This document shows positions 7,995 to 63,566 of a stretch of DNA of 64,000 bases, one piece after another. The number at the start of each line of letters is the position of its first letter. The stretch's first letter is position 1. Origin of the DNA: Escherichia phage RB14; the sequence record NC_012638.1; one strand, given 5' to 3'. Below the pieces are notes generated by a model. The model did no database searches and was not told the origin of the DNA. It saw nothing but the letters and a program-made list of their open reading frames with translations. The position numbers and the translations under genes are program-made.

Positions 7995-8015
7995 GGGACC
8001 TTTCGGTCCCTTTTT
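7995..8015. terminator. Bidirectional terminator between gene 24 and rnlB
   Basis: GGGACC-TTTCG-GTCCC hairpin flanked by A-run and T-run. Confidence 0.8.
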
Positions 8016-22126: not shown

Positions 22127-22130
22127 CAAT

Positions 22131-22160
22131 GGGGACCTTTCGGTCCCCATATTTTTATTT
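22131..22160. terminator. Bidirectional terminator between gene 54 and the alt.-3-position gene
   Basis: GGGGACC-TTTCG-GTCCCC hairpin followed by ATATTTTTATTT. Confidence 0.8.
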
Positions 22161-22445
22161 ACGGAATGAAATAAAAGCAGCAACTGAAGCAACTAAACTG
22201 TCTTCAATATAAACTTCAATTTTTACCGGAGCTTCTGACTCAAATTTACCTGTTACTACACCTTGAAAAATACTTTCAGTCTGTTCTGGCTTTGAAAAAT
22301 TTTCAGAAGGAAAAATTCCGAACTTTTTATCTGTTCCAAAAATTTTGATAAATTCATCGTAAACTGCTTCATTAAAAGCATTATCAGCAGGAATAACGCC
22401 TTCAACGACGAGTTCTTGACCTAAAAAGCGCAAAGAAGATTTCAT
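22155..22445 (-). CDS. Hypothetical protein (alt.-3 position, 96 aa)
   Basis: ATG start with GAGG Shine-Dalgarno; own early promoter/leader cassette upstream. Confidence 0.7.
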   Translation of the reverse strand: MKSSLRFLGQELVVEGVIPADNAFNEAVYDEFIKIFGTDKKFGIFPSENFSKPEQTESIFQGVVTGKFESEAPVKIEVYIEDSLVASVAAFISFRK

Positions 22446-22452
22446 TTTGTGT

Positions 22453-22506
22453 TCCTCATGTTATGTCAGTAAGACTACTATAACACAACATGAGGGACTT
22501 GTAAAC
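22453..22506 (-). repeat. 54 bp promoter/leader cassette, copy 1 (partner at 38230-38283, 52/54 identical)
   Basis: Direct alignment of the two stretches. Confidence 0.9.
22477..22506 (-). promoter_or_regulatory. Early sigma70-type promoter for the alt.-3-position gene
   Basis: Minus strand GTTTACA, 17 nt, TATAGT. Confidence 0.65.
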
Positions 22507-24563
22507 TACATTTTGAACTTTTTAGACATTCCGTTGATGTTAACCAAAGAAGCTAAGATTTGAGAAACTTCGTTTTCCTCTTCTTTTGATTCTTCTACAA
22601 GGAATTGATTAAATCCAGCCATTGGACGAACTTCACCAGTTTCCATTAGATGGTCGCCATCATATACTGATTCTTCTAATTGTTCAGAAGGAGGAACGAT
22701 TGTACCTTCGATTAGATACTTGTTATAAGCAGTTTCTTTCATAAAGTAAGTACTTACTTTATTAATCTTCAGTAAAATTCCACGTGGTAGAATAACTTCA
22801 GCTTCTGATGGAAATCCTGATAAATGACCCGGAACGATAACTTTAACTCGTTCAGCTCCTTTAATTACCATACCCACGCTAGTTTCAGCATCTTCATTAG
22901 CATATGTAGAATGACTACCCATATGCATCAAATCTTCTGCATCAACAGAACCTTCTCCTTCGCCAGAAAATACTGCACCGGAATCATCTAGAGCCATATA
23001 GTTTTTACCATGCTCACCGAAGATATTTGGTTTAAGTGATGTCGATACGAAGTTCTTGAAATAGAACATTTTATTTTCAATGTTATGACGCAAAGTTTTA
23101 AAAGTAACTTCTTGTCCACGGTAAAGTGTAGTTCCTGGAGGAAGAACTGAACCTTTAGCAAACGCAGAATCCATAGTCTCGATGTGCTTAATAGCGCGCT
23201 CCATGTATTCTTCACGTGTAGAATCAGGTTTACCTAAAAGGAATGAGTTCATTTCAACATACGAATCTGCGCAATAATCTTCAATTACATCAGACTCAGC
23301 CTGAGTCAATCCTTTTGGAGTTACTTCAGTGCTTGCATATTCATACGCCTGAGCAGCGGATTCATCAATTAATTTATAAATTCCATTCATTACAAATTGA
23401 ATAATAGCTGTCTTTTCATCTGGTGTAGCTTTAGAACCTTTAACTAAATCATTGATAATTTTCTTAATAACATCAAAACTATTAGAAATATTAATATCAG
23501 CAAGATCGCTTAAAATTTTATCAGTTTTGTAATTAAAGAAGTCTTTATTCTTTAAATATTCCTGGGAACCTTGATATGATGTATCGCTCTGCAACTTGAT
23601 AGATGGATCGCGTAAACGTGCATGGGCTAATGCAATATGATTTCGGAAACTTTCTAGTTCATAATCGTTAGATTTAAAACGAGAAGCACTTCTCATACCG
23701 CCGATAGCTCCTTTGCCGAAGTTTGAACCAATCTGAATAACGCCAGAGTTCATTGGTCCTTCTGCTTTATATACCGGAACTTTAGATTCAAACTCTTGAT
23801 ATTTCTTAGCAGCGAAGCTATCACCCTGAAGTGAAGCATCAACAGTAGAATATTGAGCTTGTGCTGCTAATCGACGACTAATTTTAGTTTTCTGAATAAC
23901 AGCTTGATCCGTACGCTTATCATTTTCTAAAGCAATAGAAGCAGCAACTGCGACAGCTTTAGGAACAGCATTACCTGTTTTAACGTCTACATAAACATCA
24001 CCAACCTTTGATTCAACTTTTGTGAATAACTCAGTTGAAATAGGAGGTACACCTGGAATGTCTTCTAAATTGGCATTTTTACGGTAAACCATAATATATG
24101 CATATTTCTTATCATAGTCCCAGATTTCCTTTAAAAGAACATATCGACCTGCTCCTTTAGTACGTACTAAACGGTCAGCAATAACTTGCATTTGACGAGC
24201 AGCGCCATTTGTTTTACTTTTTAGTACGCGGAATAGGCATGCATCAATTTTATACTGTTTCATTGTTTGAAGAGCAGTATCAAAAACCGCATTAATGACA
24301 CCAATTGGATTTCCACCCAAGTTTTTAAGCTTAACTAACGATAATTTCTCATTAACACCTATCATTACGATATGCATCATTTTGTCGCCTGGCTTAACGT
24401 TTTTATTCGTATCACCGCCAGAGGTGTATGTACAAAATCGAAATCCAGGAAGAACGCTTTCTTCACCGGCTTGAATAGCAAAAATTTGAGGTATTTTATG
24501 CTTAGGATTTAAGTTAACAACCGGCGCCGAAGCGCCGTCAAATAATTCTGTAATAAGTTCCAT
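22506..24563 (-). CDS. Alt-like ADP-ribosyltransferase paralog (685 aa)
   Basis: N-terminus MELITELFD and about 230 aa closely parallel to alt; C-terminal region has FVSTSL and SEAEVILPRG motifs. Confidence 0.85.
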   Translation of the reverse strand: MELITELFDGASAPVVNLNPKHKIPQIFAIQAGEESVLPGFRFCTYTSGGDTNKNVKPGDKMMHIVMIGVNEKLSLVKLKNLGGNPIGVINAVFDTALQTMKQYKIDACLFRVLKSKTNGAARQMQVIADRLVRTKGAGRYVLLKEIWDYDKKYAYIMVYRKNANLEDIPGVPPISTELFTKVESKVGDVYVDVKTGNAVPKAVAVAASIALENDKRTDQAVIQKTKISRRLAAQAQYSTVDASLQGDSFAAKKYQEFESKVPVYKAEGPMNSGVIQIGSNFGKGAIGGMRSASRFKSNDYELESFRNHIALAHARLRDPSIKLQSDTSYQGSQEYLKNKDFFNYKTDKILSDLADINISNSFDVIKKIINDLVKGSKATPDEKTAIIQFVMNGIYKLIDESAAQAYEYASTEVTPKGLTQAESDVIEDYCADSYVEMNSFLLGKPDSTREEYMERAIKHIETMDSAFAKGSVLPPGTTLYRGQEVTFKTLRHNIENKMFYFKNFVSTSLKPNIFGEHGKNYMALDDSGAVFSGEGEGSVDAEDLMHMGSHSTYANEDAETSVGMVIKGAERVKVIVPGHLSGFPSEAEVILPRGILLKINKVSTYFMKETAYNKYLIEGTIVPPSEQLEESVYDGDHLMETGEVRPMAGFNQFLVEESKEEENEVSQILASLVNINGMSKKFKM

Positions 24564-24566
24564 GAT

Positions 24567-26663
24567 TTATCCTTGAACGAACTTGTAAGGCATGTTTGTA
24601 ATATCTATGCAAGACGCAATAATTCCAAGAGATGATTCTACTTTCTGTTTAACGTTTGATGAAACAAATGATGCAAAGTCAACTCTGTCTTCTATTTCAG
24701 TATCACCTGTCATTGCAACTACTTCACCGGTTTCCATTAAATGGTCTCCGTCATAGATTACCGATTCGGTGAGCTCTTCCGTGGTCATAACTTCAGCTTG
24801 AATGAGTTTTGTATTATTAGATGTTGTTCCGTCATTATTAGAAGCATCAGTTATTTTATTAACTTTGACCATCAATCCACGCGGTAGAATAACTTCAGCT
24901 TCTGTTGCTATTCCGAGACTTCCTGGATATACAACATTAACTTTATGAGCTCCATCAATTGCCCATCCTATTTGAACTTTAACGTATTCAGGATTTTCTT
25001 TATACGCTCTTATTTCGTTTGGATTAATAGTTATTCCTTCTTCATTTTTATCAACTGTTAATTCATTGCGAGCTTCTGGTTCTAAAAGACCAATACCAGC
25101 ATGTGTGATTCCAAAACGTCCAAAAATGATAGGAGTTAAAGAAGTAGATACAAAATTTCTGAAGTAGAACACTTTATTTTTAACTAACGCTTCATATATA
25201 GGAGCAGTCATACTTTGAGCACGATAAACTGTAATGCCTTCTGGTATACGGTCACCATTTTCAAAAGCTGAATCTAAGTTATTTATAGCAGATTCAATTT
25301 CTTTTTCACTCATTACATCATATCGTTCTGGATTGTAACGACCTAAAAGAAGATTATTGATGTCAGTATATCCTGAACCGCAATATTCTCTAATGCCACG
25401 CTTTTGTGATGGAGTATATTTAGAACCATCGCGGGCAATAGTAATATCAATCATTGGACCAGCACCAATTCCAGAAAAACTGTAAATCATTCGTTTGAGG
25501 AATTTAGTTTTTGCTGCGTTCCAGGAATTTTTAGTTATTTCTTCCCAGACTTCATCTGGTTGTCCTTTACGATTTTTATTATGATTAGCAAGCCATTTAT
25601 CTTTATAATCTTCAAAGAATTGATTTACAGCTGCTGCGTATTTCTCTAAACATTTTATTGAAGTAGTTGGTTCATTTTTAATTGCATTAAAAATTACTTC
25701 TTTAATTTTTTCTGAAACTTCACCGACTTGACTCATTGGAAAGAATTTATAATCATAGTGAAGTTCATCTGCCGTTCCTTCAGCAATAATTTTTGCTGCC
25801 TTTGTTTTAGAAGCTAATGAATTAATTCCAATTTTCATTTCTTCTGCTTCGGGAATTAAAGGTGCAGTAGCTGGTTTATTAAAATTAGCTGCTGTAGATT
25901 CATACTTCTGGAATAATTCACTTTCAAATCTAGAAGATTCCAATGACTGACTTTGTGCAATTGCTCTACGGGAAATTTTAACTTTAACGATTACGGCTTG
26001 GTCAGAACGTTTATCATTTTCTTGTGCAATAGATGCAGCAATTGCCTCATTTTTGGTTACTTGAGCTCCAGTATCTTTATTGATATAAACATCACCGACC
26101 TTCGATTCAACTTTAGTAAAGAGCTCGGTGCTAATTTCTGGAACTCCTGGAATGTCTTCTAGTGATACATTTTTACGATGTATAAGAATATATGCATACT
26201 TTTTATCGTAATCCCAGAGTTCCTTAAGAAGGACGTATCTGCCACCTGAACGACTGCGGATGAGTCTATCAGCAATAAGTTGAATTTGTCGAGCTTGACC
26301 GGCGGTTTTAGACTTAAGAATACGAAGCATGCAGGCATCAATTTTATATTGACGCATTGTTTGCATTGCAACAGTAAAAACTGAATTGATATAATTAATC
26401 GGGCTTGGACCAAGACCTTTTAATTTAGCAATTGAACCTTTAGCAGTTAATGTAAAAGGAACAATATGCATCATTTTATCGCCCATCTTTAAATCACGAT
26501 TAGTATCACCTCCAGATGTATAGGTACATAAACGAAAGCCTGGTTGTTCAATTGCATCATCAACATGAACTGAAAAAATTTGTGGTATTTTCTTCTTTGG
26601 ATTTAAGTTTGTAATCGGAAGAGTAGTATCTTCGTCAAATAATTCTGTAATGAGTTCCATCAT
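24567..26663 (-). CDS. alt: Alt ADP-ribosyltransferase, packaged in the head (698 aa from first ATG)
   Basis: N-terminus MMELITELFDEDTTLPITNL matches recalled T4 Alt; STS and EAE motifs; reverse TATAAATA upstream. Confidence 0.9.
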   Translation of the reverse strand: MMELITELFDEDTTLPITNLNPKKKIPQIFSVHVDDAIEQPGFRLCTYTSGGDTNRDLKMGDKMMHIVPFTLTAKGSIAKLKGLGPSPINYINSVFTVAMQTMRQYKIDACMLRILKSKTAGQARQIQLIADRLIRSRSGGRYVLLKELWDYDKKYAYILIHRKNVSLEDIPGVPEISTELFTKVESKVGDVYINKDTGAQVTKNEAIAASIAQENDKRSDQAVIVKVKISRRAIAQSQSLESSRFESELFQKYESTAANFNKPATAPLIPEAEEMKIGINSLASKTKAAKIIAEGTADELHYDYKFFPMSQVGEVSEKIKEVIFNAIKNEPTTSIKCLEKYAAAVNQFFEDYKDKWLANHNKNRKGQPDEVWEEITKNSWNAAKTKFLKRMIYSFSGIGAGPMIDITIARDGSKYTPSQKRGIREYCGSGYTDINNLLLGRYNPERYDVMSEKEIESAINNLDSAFENGDRIPEGITVYRAQSMTAPIYEALVKNKVFYFRNFVSTSLTPIIFGRFGITHAGIGLLEPEARNELTVDKNEEGITINPNEIRAYKENPEYVKVQIGWAIDGAHKVNVVYPGSLGIATEAEVILPRGLMVKVNKITDASNNDGTTSNNTKLIQAEVMTTEELTESVIYDGDHLMETGEVVAMTGDTEIEDRVDFASFVSSNVKQKVESSLGIIASCIDITNMPYKFVQG

Positions 26664-26683: not shown

Positions 26684-26691
26684 TATTTATA
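26684..26691 (-). promoter_or_regulatory. Late promoter (reverse TATAAATA) upstream of alt
   Basis: Exact match. Confidence 0.65.
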
Positions 26692-31071: not shown

Positions 31072-31404
31072 TTATTTTACTACTTTCCAATGCTTCATAT
31101 CAAGTTTACCAACTTTTTTCATCTTCTCAATTAAGCGTTCGGCACGTTGGCGAGCTGTAACATAATACCATTCACCTAATTCATTTTGTTCAATTTTTCC
31201 AACGATTACTGTATTCAATTCATAAATCCAACCAGTAAAGAAATTATGAACTTGAATTGTAAAGGTGAAATCTGTTCCCATACCTTCTGTTGTTTCTACT
31301 TCAATAATATCACCTTCAACTGCCATTAAGAACCACATAGTTTCATCATATTTACCATTGAAGCATTTAGTTTTAACTGCAGCGTTCAGATTAATCGTTT
31401 TCAT
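31072..31404 (-). CDS. Hypothetical protein (110 aa)
   Basis: ATG start with AAGGAG upstream. Confidence 0.6.
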   Translation of the reverse strand: MKTINLNAAVKTKCFNGKYDETMWFLMAVEGDIIEVETTEGMGTDFTFTIQVHNFFTGWIYELNTVIVGKIEQNELGEWYYVTARQRAERLIEKMKKVGKLDMKHWKVVK

Positions 31405-31491
31405 TTTATTCTCCTTTGTTTGTGTAAGATAATACTATCACAAAGGAACCATACTGTAAACAACTTTGTGCAATCTTTGGAAAATAAAAAA

Positions 31492-37378: not shown

Positions 37379-37728
37379 TTAGAAAGATCCTGGATGTCTT
37401 CTGCGAACTTGCTAAAGGAATTGTTGATTTGTTTTTCAACCAATCCTGGCTTACTAGCCACCACATCCGCCTTCTTCGCATCTTTACGCAGTTTTTCATT
37501 TTCACGCTCAATTGCAGCAATTGATTCACGATTTTTATTATTCATTGCATCAATATAATTATATTGATTTTTTAAATCATTTAATGCTAAAGCATTTTCA
37601 TTAGCAGTTTTTGTAATTTCTACGACAGACGTTTCTAATCTTTCAATTTTGTGTTTTAAAACTAAAGAAGTTCCGCCCAATGTAATTACAATTAATAGTA
37701 AACCTGCTGTAGTATTACTTAATTGCAT
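37375..37728 (-). CDS. Inner-membrane spanin (i-spanin) (117 aa)
   Basis: N-terminal transmembrane segment followed by a long charged helical region; ATGA overlap with the lipoprotein gene. Confidence 0.7.
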   Translation of the reverse strand: MQLSNTTAGLLLIVITLGGTSLVLKHKIERLETSVVEITKTANENALALNDLKNQYNYIDAMNNKNRESIAAIERENEKLRKDAKKADVVASKPGLVEKQINNSFSKFAEDIQDLSK

Positions 37729-38225
37729 AAAGTTTTAATAACCTCTATAATATCGTCTTGAGAAAGACCGTTAATTAAAATATGATGTTCAGCTGGAGAT
37801 TTAGAAATTTTAAAGCATGCCGCAACATCTTCTGCCATATCTGATGCACTACGATTTGGATTACTAATTCCAAGACGATGCTTTCCAGTCAAAGGATTAA
37901 CGATGATATAGCATTTGCAGCTATTGATATGAACATTGGGTTGAGTCTGATTAATGAACACTTCACAATCATACTTAGCGAGTTGATTTTCTAAAAAGAC
38001 TTTCATCTCTTCAACCGCATCAGGAAGCATATCACGGGCTTGCTCAAGACGACGATTTCGATATTCTTTAATGGTCGTTTTCCGCTTGACTTGCTTAGCT
38101 AAATCTTTCTTAAGATCGGTGATATATCCAACTCGACGATTTCCTTTGAATACAGAAATCCCATCTGTAGTATCACCGTATGCTTCAACGACCATTTCAG
38201 TAGTAATAAGTTGTAAATCCATCAT
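37719..38225 (-). CDS. alc: Alc, inhibitor of host transcription on cytosine-containing DNA (167-168 aa)
   Basis: Length and position between the spanins and rnlA as in T4; early promoter cassette upstream. Confidence 0.8.
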   Translation of the reverse strand: MMDLQLITTEMVVEAYGDTTDGISVFKGNRRVGYITDLKKDLAKQVKRKTTIKEYRNRRLEQARDMLPDAVEEMKVFLENQLAKYDCEVFINQTQPNVHINSCKCYIIVNPLTGKHRLGISNPNRSASDMAEDVAACFKISKSPAEHHILINGLSQDDIIEVIKTLCN

Positions 38226-38229
38226 AAAG

Positions 38230-38283
38230 TCCTCATGTTATGTCAGTAAGACTACTGTAACACAACACGAGGGACTTGTAAAC
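38230..38283 (-). repeat. 54 bp promoter/leader cassette, copy 2
   Basis: Direct alignment with 22453-22506. Confidence 0.9.
38254..38283 (-). promoter_or_regulatory. Early promoter for alc (second copy of the alt.-3 cassette)
   Basis: GTTTACA, 17 nt, TACAGT; 52/54 identity to 22453-22506. Confidence 0.6.
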
Positions 38284-38286
38284 AGC

Positions 38287-39874
<1,588 letters not shown>

Positions 39875-46329: not shown

Positions 46330-46695
46330 CTACTTTTTGAAAGTTTTTCGCAAAAGTTCAATGATTTCATCTACATTGTTTTCGTCAACAATGCAGTGAA
46401 TTTTTGTTACGCCAGAAACCTTGTCTTCGATTTCATCTTCTTCAGAAGTCGGTTCTTTATACTCACGAAAACAATGAAATTCGTCTTCACAAACGTTAAA
46501 GTAAAAATGCTTTCCATTTGCGCATTCAATGTGTTTTATTACTCTAAATCCATCAACAAAGAAAGCTTCTTTAACTTCAAACCATCCGCCATTTTCTTGG
46601 ATAATTTTAACTATTGATGAATTAGAACGTGGGCGATAATTAATAAATGTATCAATAAGTCTTGGAACAAGTTCATACTTTTTGCCGATATACAT
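46330..46695 (-). CDS. Hypothetical protein (121 aa)
   Basis: ATG start. Confidence 0.55.
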   Translation of the reverse strand: MYIGKKYELVPRLIDTFINYRPRSNSSIVKIIQENGGWFEVKEAFFVDGFRVIKHIECANGKHFYFNVCEDEFHCFREYKEPTSEEDEIEDKVSGVTKIHCIVDENNVDEIIELLRKTFKK

Positions 46696-47007: not shown

Positions 47008-47066
47008 GATAGTTGTATAGTACCACAGTATGCTTTGGTTGTAAACCGTTTTGTGAAAAAATTTTT
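47008..47066 (-). repeat. 59 bp identical promoter block, copy 1 (partner at 63478-63536)
   Basis: 59/59 identity, with similarity continuing into the flanking A-run. Confidence 0.9.
47017..47046 (-). promoter_or_regulatory. Early promoter for the gene at 46740-46970
   Basis: GTTTACA, 17 nt, TACTAT, with A/T-rich upstream element. Confidence 0.65.
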
Positions 47067-47077
47067 GAAATAAAAAA

Positions 47078-47096
47078 GGGGACCCTAGAGGTCCCC
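47078..47096 (-). terminator. Terminator downstream of gene 32
   Basis: GGGGACC-CTAGA-GGTCCCC hairpin followed on the minus strand by a T-run. Confidence 0.8.
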
Positions 47097-63477: not shown

Positions 63478-63536
63478 GATAGTTGTATAGTACCACAGTA
63501 TGCTTTGGTTGTAAACCGTTTTGTGAAAAAATTTTT
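63478..63536 (-). repeat. 59 bp identical promoter block, copy 2
   Basis: Direct alignment with 47008-47066. Confidence 0.9.
63487..63516 (-). promoter_or_regulatory. Early promoter for motA
   Basis: Identical core to the promoter at 47017-47046. Confidence 0.7.
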
Positions 63537-63546
63537 AAATAAAAAA

Positions 63547-63566
63547 GGGAGAGCCGAGGCTCTCCC
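63547..63566 (-). terminator. Terminator upstream of the motA promoter
   Basis: GGGAGAGCC-GAG-GCTCTCCC hairpin followed on the minus strand by a T-run. Confidence 0.75.

Follow-up and report, generated by a model that had tools for sequence, protein, structure and literature searches.

A duplicated early-promoter cassette in Escherichia phage RB14 with a predicted hairpin that would free the ribosome-binding site only in transcripts from its own promoter

A 64,000-nucleotide stretch of the Escherichia phage RB14 genome (NC_012638.1; hereafter the window) carries nearly the same 54 nt directly before two unrelated early genes, alt.-3 and alc. Each copy holds a predicted early promoter, a leader and a Shine-Dalgarno (SD) sequence, and part of the promoter spacer is complementary to the SD region. 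Does such a cassette only start transcription, or could it also let the origin of a transcript decide whether the gene behind it is translated? The second possibility was raised by an initial annotation made from the sequence of the window, which proposed that transcripts started within the cassette would have a free SD and that transcripts reading through from upstream could bury it. Here we examine the cassette, its predicted folding, its conservation among related phages and its likeness to described regulatory elements.

Results

Genomic setting of the two loci

The window matches about 500 Tequatrovirus (T4-like) genomes at 93% identity or more, and its early genes lie on the minus strand. 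The rnlA/alc locus is about 15.8 kb from the alt/alt.-3 locus, and the alc junction is syntenic in most genera compared. The features of the two loci are as follows.

22129..22150, no strand assigned: bidirectional terminator-like hairpin between alt.-3 and gene 54
22155..22445, minus strand: alt.-3 ORF, 96 aa, 3' of cassette copy 1, ATG at 22445
22506..24563, minus strand: second full-length Alt-like ADP-ribosyltransferase ORF, its TAG stop overlapping the first base of copy 1
24567-26663, minus strand: first full-length Alt-like ADP-ribosyltransferase ORF (alt), in tandem with the ORF at 22506-24563
26684..26691, minus strand: late-promoter motif TATAAATA, 21 nt upstream of the alt start
37719..38225, minus strand: alc ORF, inhibitor of host transcription, 3' of cassette copy 2, ATG at 38225
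38287..39447, minus strand: rnlA (gene 63) ORF, ending 3 nt upstream of copy 2

The hairpin at 22129-22150 marks the end of the alt/alt.-3 transcription unit. Its perfect 9-bp stem is G/C-rich and carries a TTCG loop. The genes alt.-3 and 54 converge on it, and it has a T-run on the plus strand only; a related copy is found at 7995-8010 (repeat family D12). The DNA of the two tandem Alt-like genes is about 70-78% identical in blocks. In T4 the second Alt-like gene consists only of the fragments alt.-1 and alt.-2, which retain the same C-terminal codons (KKFKM and stop) abutting the cassette. Relative to RB14, T4 lacks an internal part of the Alt paralog; the deletion ends about 20 nt upstream of copy 1, outside the cassette. 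A T4/RB14 homology break inside the cassette, as the model for promoter-early stem-loop (PeSL) cassettes predicts, was considered and rejected on account of this position.

A 54-nt cassette that fills the gap between stop codon and SD

The annotated repeat proved exact in position, with two differences between the copies:

22453..22506, minus strand: cassette copy 1, before alt.-3, comprising -35 box, spacer, -10 box, leader and SD
38230..38283, minus strand: cassette copy 2, before alc, sharing 52 of 54 bases with copy 1

The consensus of both copies on the minus strand is GTTTACAAGTCCCTC[A/G]TGTTGTGTTA[T/C]AGTAGTCTTACTGACATAACATGAGGA. Allowing up to 3 mismatches, these are the only two matches in the 64 kb, with 0.00 expected by chance (100 shuffles). 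Each copy entirely fills the gap that separates the upstream stop from the downstream SD. At copy 1 the G of the Alt paralog's TAG stop is the first G of GTTTACA, and copy 2 begins 3 nt past the rnlA TAA stop. In both, the -10 box is followed by AGTCTTACTGACATAACATGAGGA and then the start codon.

One copy difference (A/G) turns an A-U pair of the predicted fold into G-U, so pairing is preserved, as first annotated. The other (T/C in the -10 box) turns a U-G pair of the inner helix into C-G and weakens the -10 box. The RegB target GGAG is absent from the SD of both copies, which reads GAGGA.

A predicted embedded early promoter

The promoter layout described for the cassette, GTTTACA, 17 nt, then TATAGT or TACAGT, holds when the spacer is counted from TTTACA: copy 1 is TTTACA-17-TATAGT and copy 2 is TTTACA-17-TACAGT, with TG upstream of each -10 box.

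22500..22505, minus strand: copy 1 -35 hexamer TTTACA (GTTTACA at 22506-22500)
22477..22482, minus strand: copy 1 -10 hexamer TATAGT, preceded by TG, at the top of the hairpin
38259-38254, minus strand: copy 2 -10 box TACAGT

In the window, 9 sites match the T4 early motif GTTTAC-N18-TAnnnT, where 0.84 would be expected, and every one is on the minus strand. Judged by sequence, the cassette promoter is of the early sigma-70 type and fits the sigma-70-like T-even early form TTTACW-N17-TAYWAT; the late-promoter motif TATAAATA is absent from both cassettes. We predict transcription to start at the A at 22470 (copy 1) and the A at 38247 (copy 2), positions derived solely from that of the -10 box.

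Predicted pairing of the promoter spacer with the SD

The 9-nt complementarity first noticed is exact, CCTCATGTT being the reverse complement of AACATGAGG, but it is the core of a longer helix, and the whole hairpin has about 15-22 bp. The main helix, CCTCATGTTGTGTTA with TGACATAACATGAGG, has about 15 bp including two G-U pairs and is joined by an inner helix of 4-5 bp. In copy 2 the helix continues outside the repeat by AAGTCC/GGACTT.

22481..22495, minus strand: copy 1 5' arm CCTCATGTTGTGTTA, in the promoter spacer and, as predicted, absent from the own-promoter transcript
22454..22468, minus strand: copy 1 3' arm TGACATAACATGAGG, containing the SD GAGG (22457-22454)
38258..38277, minus strand: copy 2 5' arm AAGTCC(C)CTCGTGTTGTGTTA
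38227..38245, minus strand: copy 2 3' arm TGACATAACATGAGGACTT, containing the SD GAGG (38234-38231) and reaching 3 nt past the repeat

The copy 2 5' arm spans the last base of the -35 hexamer, the spacer and the first two bases of the -10 box TACAGT. The -10 box sits at the top of the hairpin, and the loop holds the predicted +1, two bases ahead of the 3' arm.

We folded both leaders with and without the upstream arm. The 101-nt read-through RNAs have minimum free energies (MFE) of -23.7 (alt.-3) and -32.6 (alc) kcal/mol, with z-scores of -3.3 and -4.8, and the SD is fully paired in both the MFE and the centroid structures. RNAs from the predicted +1 reach only -2.2 and -1.8 kcal/mol, no better than shuffles. 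Opening the region from -15 to +5 around the AUG costs 18.1 (alt.-3) and 19.5 (alc) kcal/mol in read-through RNA versus 2.8 and 3.4 kcal/mol in own-promoter RNA. The folding bears out the proposal that the SD is paired in the former and free in the latter. The cassette stem-loops, which start in the spacer and enclose the -10 box, score z -5.3 and -6.1 against shuffles. In Tequatrovirus the sense RNA is more stable than the antisense RNA (for example -25.7 vs -17.9) because of the G-U pairs.

The tails that follow the two stems, AACACAAAAUG and CUUUAUGAUG, are A-rich and have no U-tract, and a terminator scan of the window lists neither cassette site. Without a U-run after the stem, the hairpin does not have the form of an intrinsic (Rho-independent) terminator.

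Distribution and polymorphism within Tequatrovirus

A search for the 54-mer gave 995 places in 498 phage records, or about two per genome; in no record does the best copy fall below 94% identity. T4 carries both copies. Copies from T4, IMG/VR and metagenomes differ at four positions, all of which keep pairing (A-U/G-U, G-U/A-U, U-G/C-G and C-G/U-G); this is only suggestive, as about half of stem transitions are expected to preserve pairing. The A/G variant occurs at either locus, depending on the phage, and fits either recurrent mutation or gene conversion. Pattern scans with the stems left free gave 7 loci in IMG/VR and 6 in metagenomes, too few for population-level covariation, and a search for homologous loci with Alc and Alt.-3 returned only near-identical Tequatrovirus contigs.

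The alc leader in other genera

The upstream regions of alc and alt.-3 were fetched from other genera and folded. At alc, which lies directly downstream of rnlA, the early-promoter spacer is complementary to the SD region in seven genera, with differing sequences. The spacer arm and SD arm of each are:

Tequatrovirus: CCTCGTGTT / AACATGAGG
Gelderlandvirus: ATCTCCGTTT / AAACGGAGAT
Karamvirus: TCTCCATTTGGTT / AACCAAATGGAGA
Jiaodavirus: ATCCTCGTCAG / CTGATGAGGAT
Dhakavirus: TCTCCTCAT / ATGAGGAGA
Winklervirus: TCCTCATTTCGTT / AACGAAATGAGGA
Kanagawavirus CIP9: CCCATTTTGTT / AACAAAATGGG

When the alc leaders were aligned with MAFFT, their 3' arms fell out of register. We anchored the pairs on GTTTAC (the -35 box) instead; the geometry of the promoter sets the register, so pairs can be compared by how far they lie from this motif. 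Positions 2-10 after GTTTAC are paired in nearly all seven genera. Both sides of the pair have changed at 8 of these 9 positions, and the remaining one, position 6, is an invariant C-G pair to an SD guanine. Cognate spacer/leader duplexes have energies of -15 to -24 kcal/mol, compared with means of -10 to -13.5 for non-cognate combinations, and only 0-1 of 2000 spacer shuffles equalled the cognate value. In the six other genera, opening costs 11-20 kcal/mol in read-through RNA vs 1-3 in the short RNA. In 7 of 7 genera the SD falls within the 3' arm, which forces loops of 12-24 nt, and in each of them the stem is followed by an A-rich tail with no U-tract. The stems outside Tequatrovirus are nearly all Watson-Crick and therefore cannot discriminate sense RNA from antisense RNA or DNA. 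On this comparative sequence evidence, the spacer/SD hairpin is ancient at the rnlA-alc junction.

Several alc leaders are built differently. In Mosigvirus SF the fold showed no SD pairing, and Gaprivervirus VR25 has an additional ORF there and lacks the promoter. The hairpins of Kanagawavirus KLB31, Tegunavirus and Zedzedvirus cover the promoter and end short of the SD; that of Zedzedvirus ZZ1 is followed by a T-run and resembles a true terminator. In the Aeromonas phage avDM5 (Biquartavirus) the spacer pairs with codons 2-5 (GAGTGGT/ACCACTC). A similar case was seen at alt.-3 of Kosakonia phage 305, where the spacer is complementary to codons 2-5 and not to the SD (GAATGAACG/CGTTCATTC). Pairing of this kind may occlude the initiation region in the same way, reached independently.

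The alt.-3 leader and the origin of its copy

By folding, the spacer/SD hairpin is absent at alt.-3 in Gelderland-, Dhaka-, Mosig-, Karam- and Marfavirus, where opening costs 3-7 kcal/mol and a small hairpin within the spacer is all that is seen. All five genera retain GTTTACA and (A)ACATGAGGA there. Persistence of the inverted repeat in relatives, which the initial annotation had named as informative, divides by locus: it is kept at alc in seven genera, with compensatory changes, and is absent at alt.-3 in the five other genera.

Since these five genera lack the hairpin, the alt.-3 copy looks genus-specific and secondary, not an independently selected control. The alt.-3 cassette is probably a copy made within Tequatrovirus. 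Most likely, the interior of an alc-type cassette replaced the interior of the alt.-3 promoter by gene conversion in the Tequatrovirus ancestor, with the direction of copying deduced from the distribution of the hairpin. The edges of the conversion tract would be the pre-existing GTTTACA and AACATGAGGA motifs, common to both loci, so that the repeat ends exactly at these shared -35 and SD motifs. The reverse direction, a cassette native to alt.-3 and copied to alc, was considered in view of the conservation of AACATGAGGA at alt.-3, and was dropped because the alc hairpin is the feature conserved across genera.

Control of alt.-3 translation by SD pairing is plausible, although the pairing there is possibly incidental. 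The idea of one shared cassette controlling two unrelated early genes is supported at alc, by both structure and evolution; the alt.-3 half is weakened by the secondary look of that copy and the restriction of its hairpin to Tequatrovirus.

A small hairpin wholly within the spacer was seen in five alt.-3 upstream regions and in Mosigvirus alc, about 45-60 nt before the start codon. Its arms vary by genus (CATCC/GGATG, CCACA/TGTGG, GCACA/TGTGT, ACACC/GGTGT) and most of the loops contain GGA. To some extent this hairpin may follow from the conserved ACA in the -35 box and the TGTG ahead of the -10 box.

Other promoter cassettes and hairpins in the window

There is a second duplicated early-promoter cassette on the minus strand, at 47008-47088 and 63478-63558 (81 nt, 91% identical). 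Within it are a G/C stem that resembles a terminator and has a T-run, a stretch rich in A/T, and GTTTACAACCAAAGCATACTGTGGTACTAT as far as about +10; its copies precede two different ORFs (starts 46970 and 63445). With its stem-loop upstream of the promoter, this cassette has the look of a classic PeSL.

A third spacer/SD hairpin is predicted at 31404-31461 on the minus strand, before a 110-aa ORF annotated elsewhere as 30.8. The promoter spacer TTCCTTTGT pairs with the SD region ACAAAGGAG, and opening costs 11.6 vs 0.3 kcal/mol. Jiaoda-, Karam- and ST2-type phages do not share this hairpin. Shigella phage JK38 has the same cassette with a 30.8 ORF of only about 38% identity behind it, suggesting that the ORF was replaced and the cassette in front of it kept.

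The minus-strand promoters starting at 46330, 34977 and 31069 also lie in significant hairpins (z -3.3 to -4.1), with the 5' arm in the spacer, the 3' arm on the -10/+1 region and not on the SD, and no U-tract. Among the PeSL classes they correspond to 'between -35 and -10' and 'overlapping -10'. Because these three hairpins close on -10/+1 and not on the SD, a more general, non-translational role of promoter-embedded hairpins is possible.

Discussion

A leader that may read the origin of its transcript

We think it reasonably probable that the cassette is a composite early promoter and leader in which transcript origin decides downstream translation, with both the translation block and the start sites derived from predicted structure and promoter geometry. 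RNA from the cassette's own promoter would start about 21-25 nt before the AUG, lack the 5' arm and leave the ribosome site free. RNA arriving from upstream would carry both arms and have its SD buried. At alt.-3 the silenced RNA would be late alt RNA that runs through both Alt genes into copy 1. At alc it would be early or middle RNA that runs through nrdB-denA-rnlA.

Read-through RNA is expected to enter both cassettes. The annotated late promoter at alt has its counterpart in the TATAAATA motif, the T4 middle promoters PnrdB and PI-TevIII lie upstream of denA-rnlA-alc (PMC2988021), and the terminator scan found no terminator-like site on the minus strand from 41000 to 31553. That such RNA would be blocked in translation is suggested by the folding energetics and by the precedent set experimentally with T4 e and I-TevI. 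The translation of alc, and likewise of alt.-3 in Tequatrovirus, would then be tied to the short burst of the gene's own early promoter. T4 early promoters are described as silenced within minutes (PMC3014915, PMC2988021), so this arrangement would confine Alc synthesis to the immediate-early burst. For alc, the interpretation is supported both structurally and evolutionarily.

Other readings of the hairpin

The hairpin could instead be a transcriptional insulator of the PeSL type, that is, an attenuator or pause site, or a 3'-end stabiliser or processing site for the rnlA and Alt mRNAs (for example through RNase III acting on a stem of about 20 bp), in which case pairing with the SD would be a by-product of the short distance from the -10 box to the AUG. 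We consider this unlikely, although several observations speak for it: one PeSL stem-loop is reported to have cut lacZ expression as a strong terminator would (Arbiol et al. 2010, PMC2839356), 6 of the 10 GTTTAC-type promoters of the window lie in significant hairpins, three of them without SD contact, and the alc hairpins of KLB31, Tegunavirus and ZZ1 overlap the promoter without SD pairing, with a T-run behind that of ZZ1. What counts against it is the make-up of the alc hairpins in all seven genera, where A-rich tails stand in place of a U-tract and the 3' arm lies on the SD at the price of large loops, even though the other promoters of the window show that a tighter -10/+1 hairpin is feasible; the invariant pair, moreover, includes an SD guanine.

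Two further readings seem to us improbable. Translational coupling would have ribosomes that finish rnlA or the Alt paralog open the hairpin, which would make downstream translation proportional to upstream translation and not silenced. The geometry invites this idea, in that the upstream stop is always 0-4 nt from the -35 hexamer and, within the 5' arm, the bases that pair with the SD lie closest to this stop, 6-14 nt downstream. RNA in the mRNA entry channel of the ribosome is single-stranded to about +11-13 from the P site. By general considerations a terminating ribosome would reach only about 5-7 nt past the stop, which puts the stem at the limit of its reach or outside it, and would melt no more than 0-3 outer pairs; opening these stems costs 11-20 kcal/mol. 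The hairpin might also be only a footprint of recombination or gene conversion, with cassettes exchanged between loci and no function of the hairpin itself. Exchange fits the exact bounding of the repeat by GTTTACA and (A)ATGAGGA, motifs that pre-exist at both loci in other genera, and it fits the second duplicated cassette of the window, the divergent 30.8 ORF behind an otherwise identical cassette in JK38, and the recombination between cassettes documented in the PeSL papers (PMC2839356, PMC4122927). It accounts for the duplication but not for the hairpin, and the compensatory changes at alc in seven genera cannot arise without selection on pairing, which contradicts this reading for alc.

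Wider implications

Returning to the reading that we prefer, translation set by transcript origin, we put forward a broader version more tentatively, as something that may well prove too generous. In this version an ancient sensor of transcript origin, built into a sigma-70 promoter spacer and kept through compensatory changes across seven Tevenvirinae genera, would restrict synthesis of the host-shutoff protein Alc to own-promoter RNA, and a portable 54-nt cassette would have carried the same logic to alt.-3. If so, T4-type phages spread regulatory logic, beyond promoters, by means of mobile leader cassettes. Confirmation would define a class of T4 early genes translated only from own-promoter transcripts, a mirror image of the textbook late genes e (lysozyme), soc and 49. 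It would also give a simple cis-acting reason why some products are made only in the first minutes despite continued RNA across the gene, and a second role besides attenuation for at least the SD-pairing subset of promoter-embedded stem-loops (PeSLs), elements that T4-type genomes commonly carry. The 54-nt cassette could serve as a compact portable part for synthetic circuits that need to ignore read-through.

Comparison with known systems

No description of the alc or alt.-3 hairpin was found in the searchable literature; older T4 promoter papers lie outside that scope and may hold an earlier mention.

In T4, gating of translation by transcript origin was shown experimentally for e and I-TevI, and soc and 49 are described as similar (PMC3014915). 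There, the SD and/or AUG is paired in the long RNA, the promoter lies inside the structure, and the short RNA without the 5' arm is translated, all of which is predicted likewise here. The arrangement is conserved in close relatives, as it is here at alc in seven genera and at alt.-3 in Tequatrovirus only. The internal promoter of those genes is late (gp55, TATAAATA) and it is early read-through that is silenced, according to the same account (PMC3014915). The cassette differs in having an early sigma-70 internal promoter whose spacer forms the 5' arm, so the later or longer RNAs would be the silenced ones. The annotated resemblance to e, soc and 49 therefore extends to an SD-pairing hairpin with a promoter inside it and stops at the timing, which is inverted because the promoter is early. 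A hairpin over the ribosome-binding site also limits translation of Aeh1 mobE, and is implicated for T4 segB (PMC3014915), as we propose here; these are homing-endonuclease genes, and that account mentions no early promoter embedded in the hairpin.

Similar in layout are the PeSL (promoter-early stem-loop) cassettes known from T4-type phages (Arbiol et al. 2010, PMC2839356; Comeau et al. 2014, PMC4122927). As described there, a PeSL is a stop-to-start module that combines an early promoter and an SD with a stem-loop lying between the promoter boxes or covering them; the modules are repeated and recombinogenic, and their authors read the stem-loops, which take five positions relative to the promoter, as terminators or attenuators. 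The RB14 cassette shares the stop-to-start extent, a strong early promoter (predicted here), a stem-loop at the promoter, a 3' SD and repeats within the genome, and by these defining features it fits the PeSL class. In the published scheme none of the five positional classes reaches the SD, whereas the cassette stem spans from spacer to SD, and the PeSLs of PST and T4 are drawn just upstream of the promoter, whereas the RB14 stem lies inside it. The cassette further differs in having no U-tract and no AT-rich upstream part, the latter because coding sequence abuts the -35 box, and, at alc, in being conserved by covariation and not by sequence. SD sequestration is not mentioned under the terms searched in Arbiol 2010 or in the text of Comeau 2014 (PMC2839356, PMC4122927). 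By analogy with these two groups of elements, what appears new is a PeSL cassette that would work like a gate of the e/soc/49 type, but with an early promoter.
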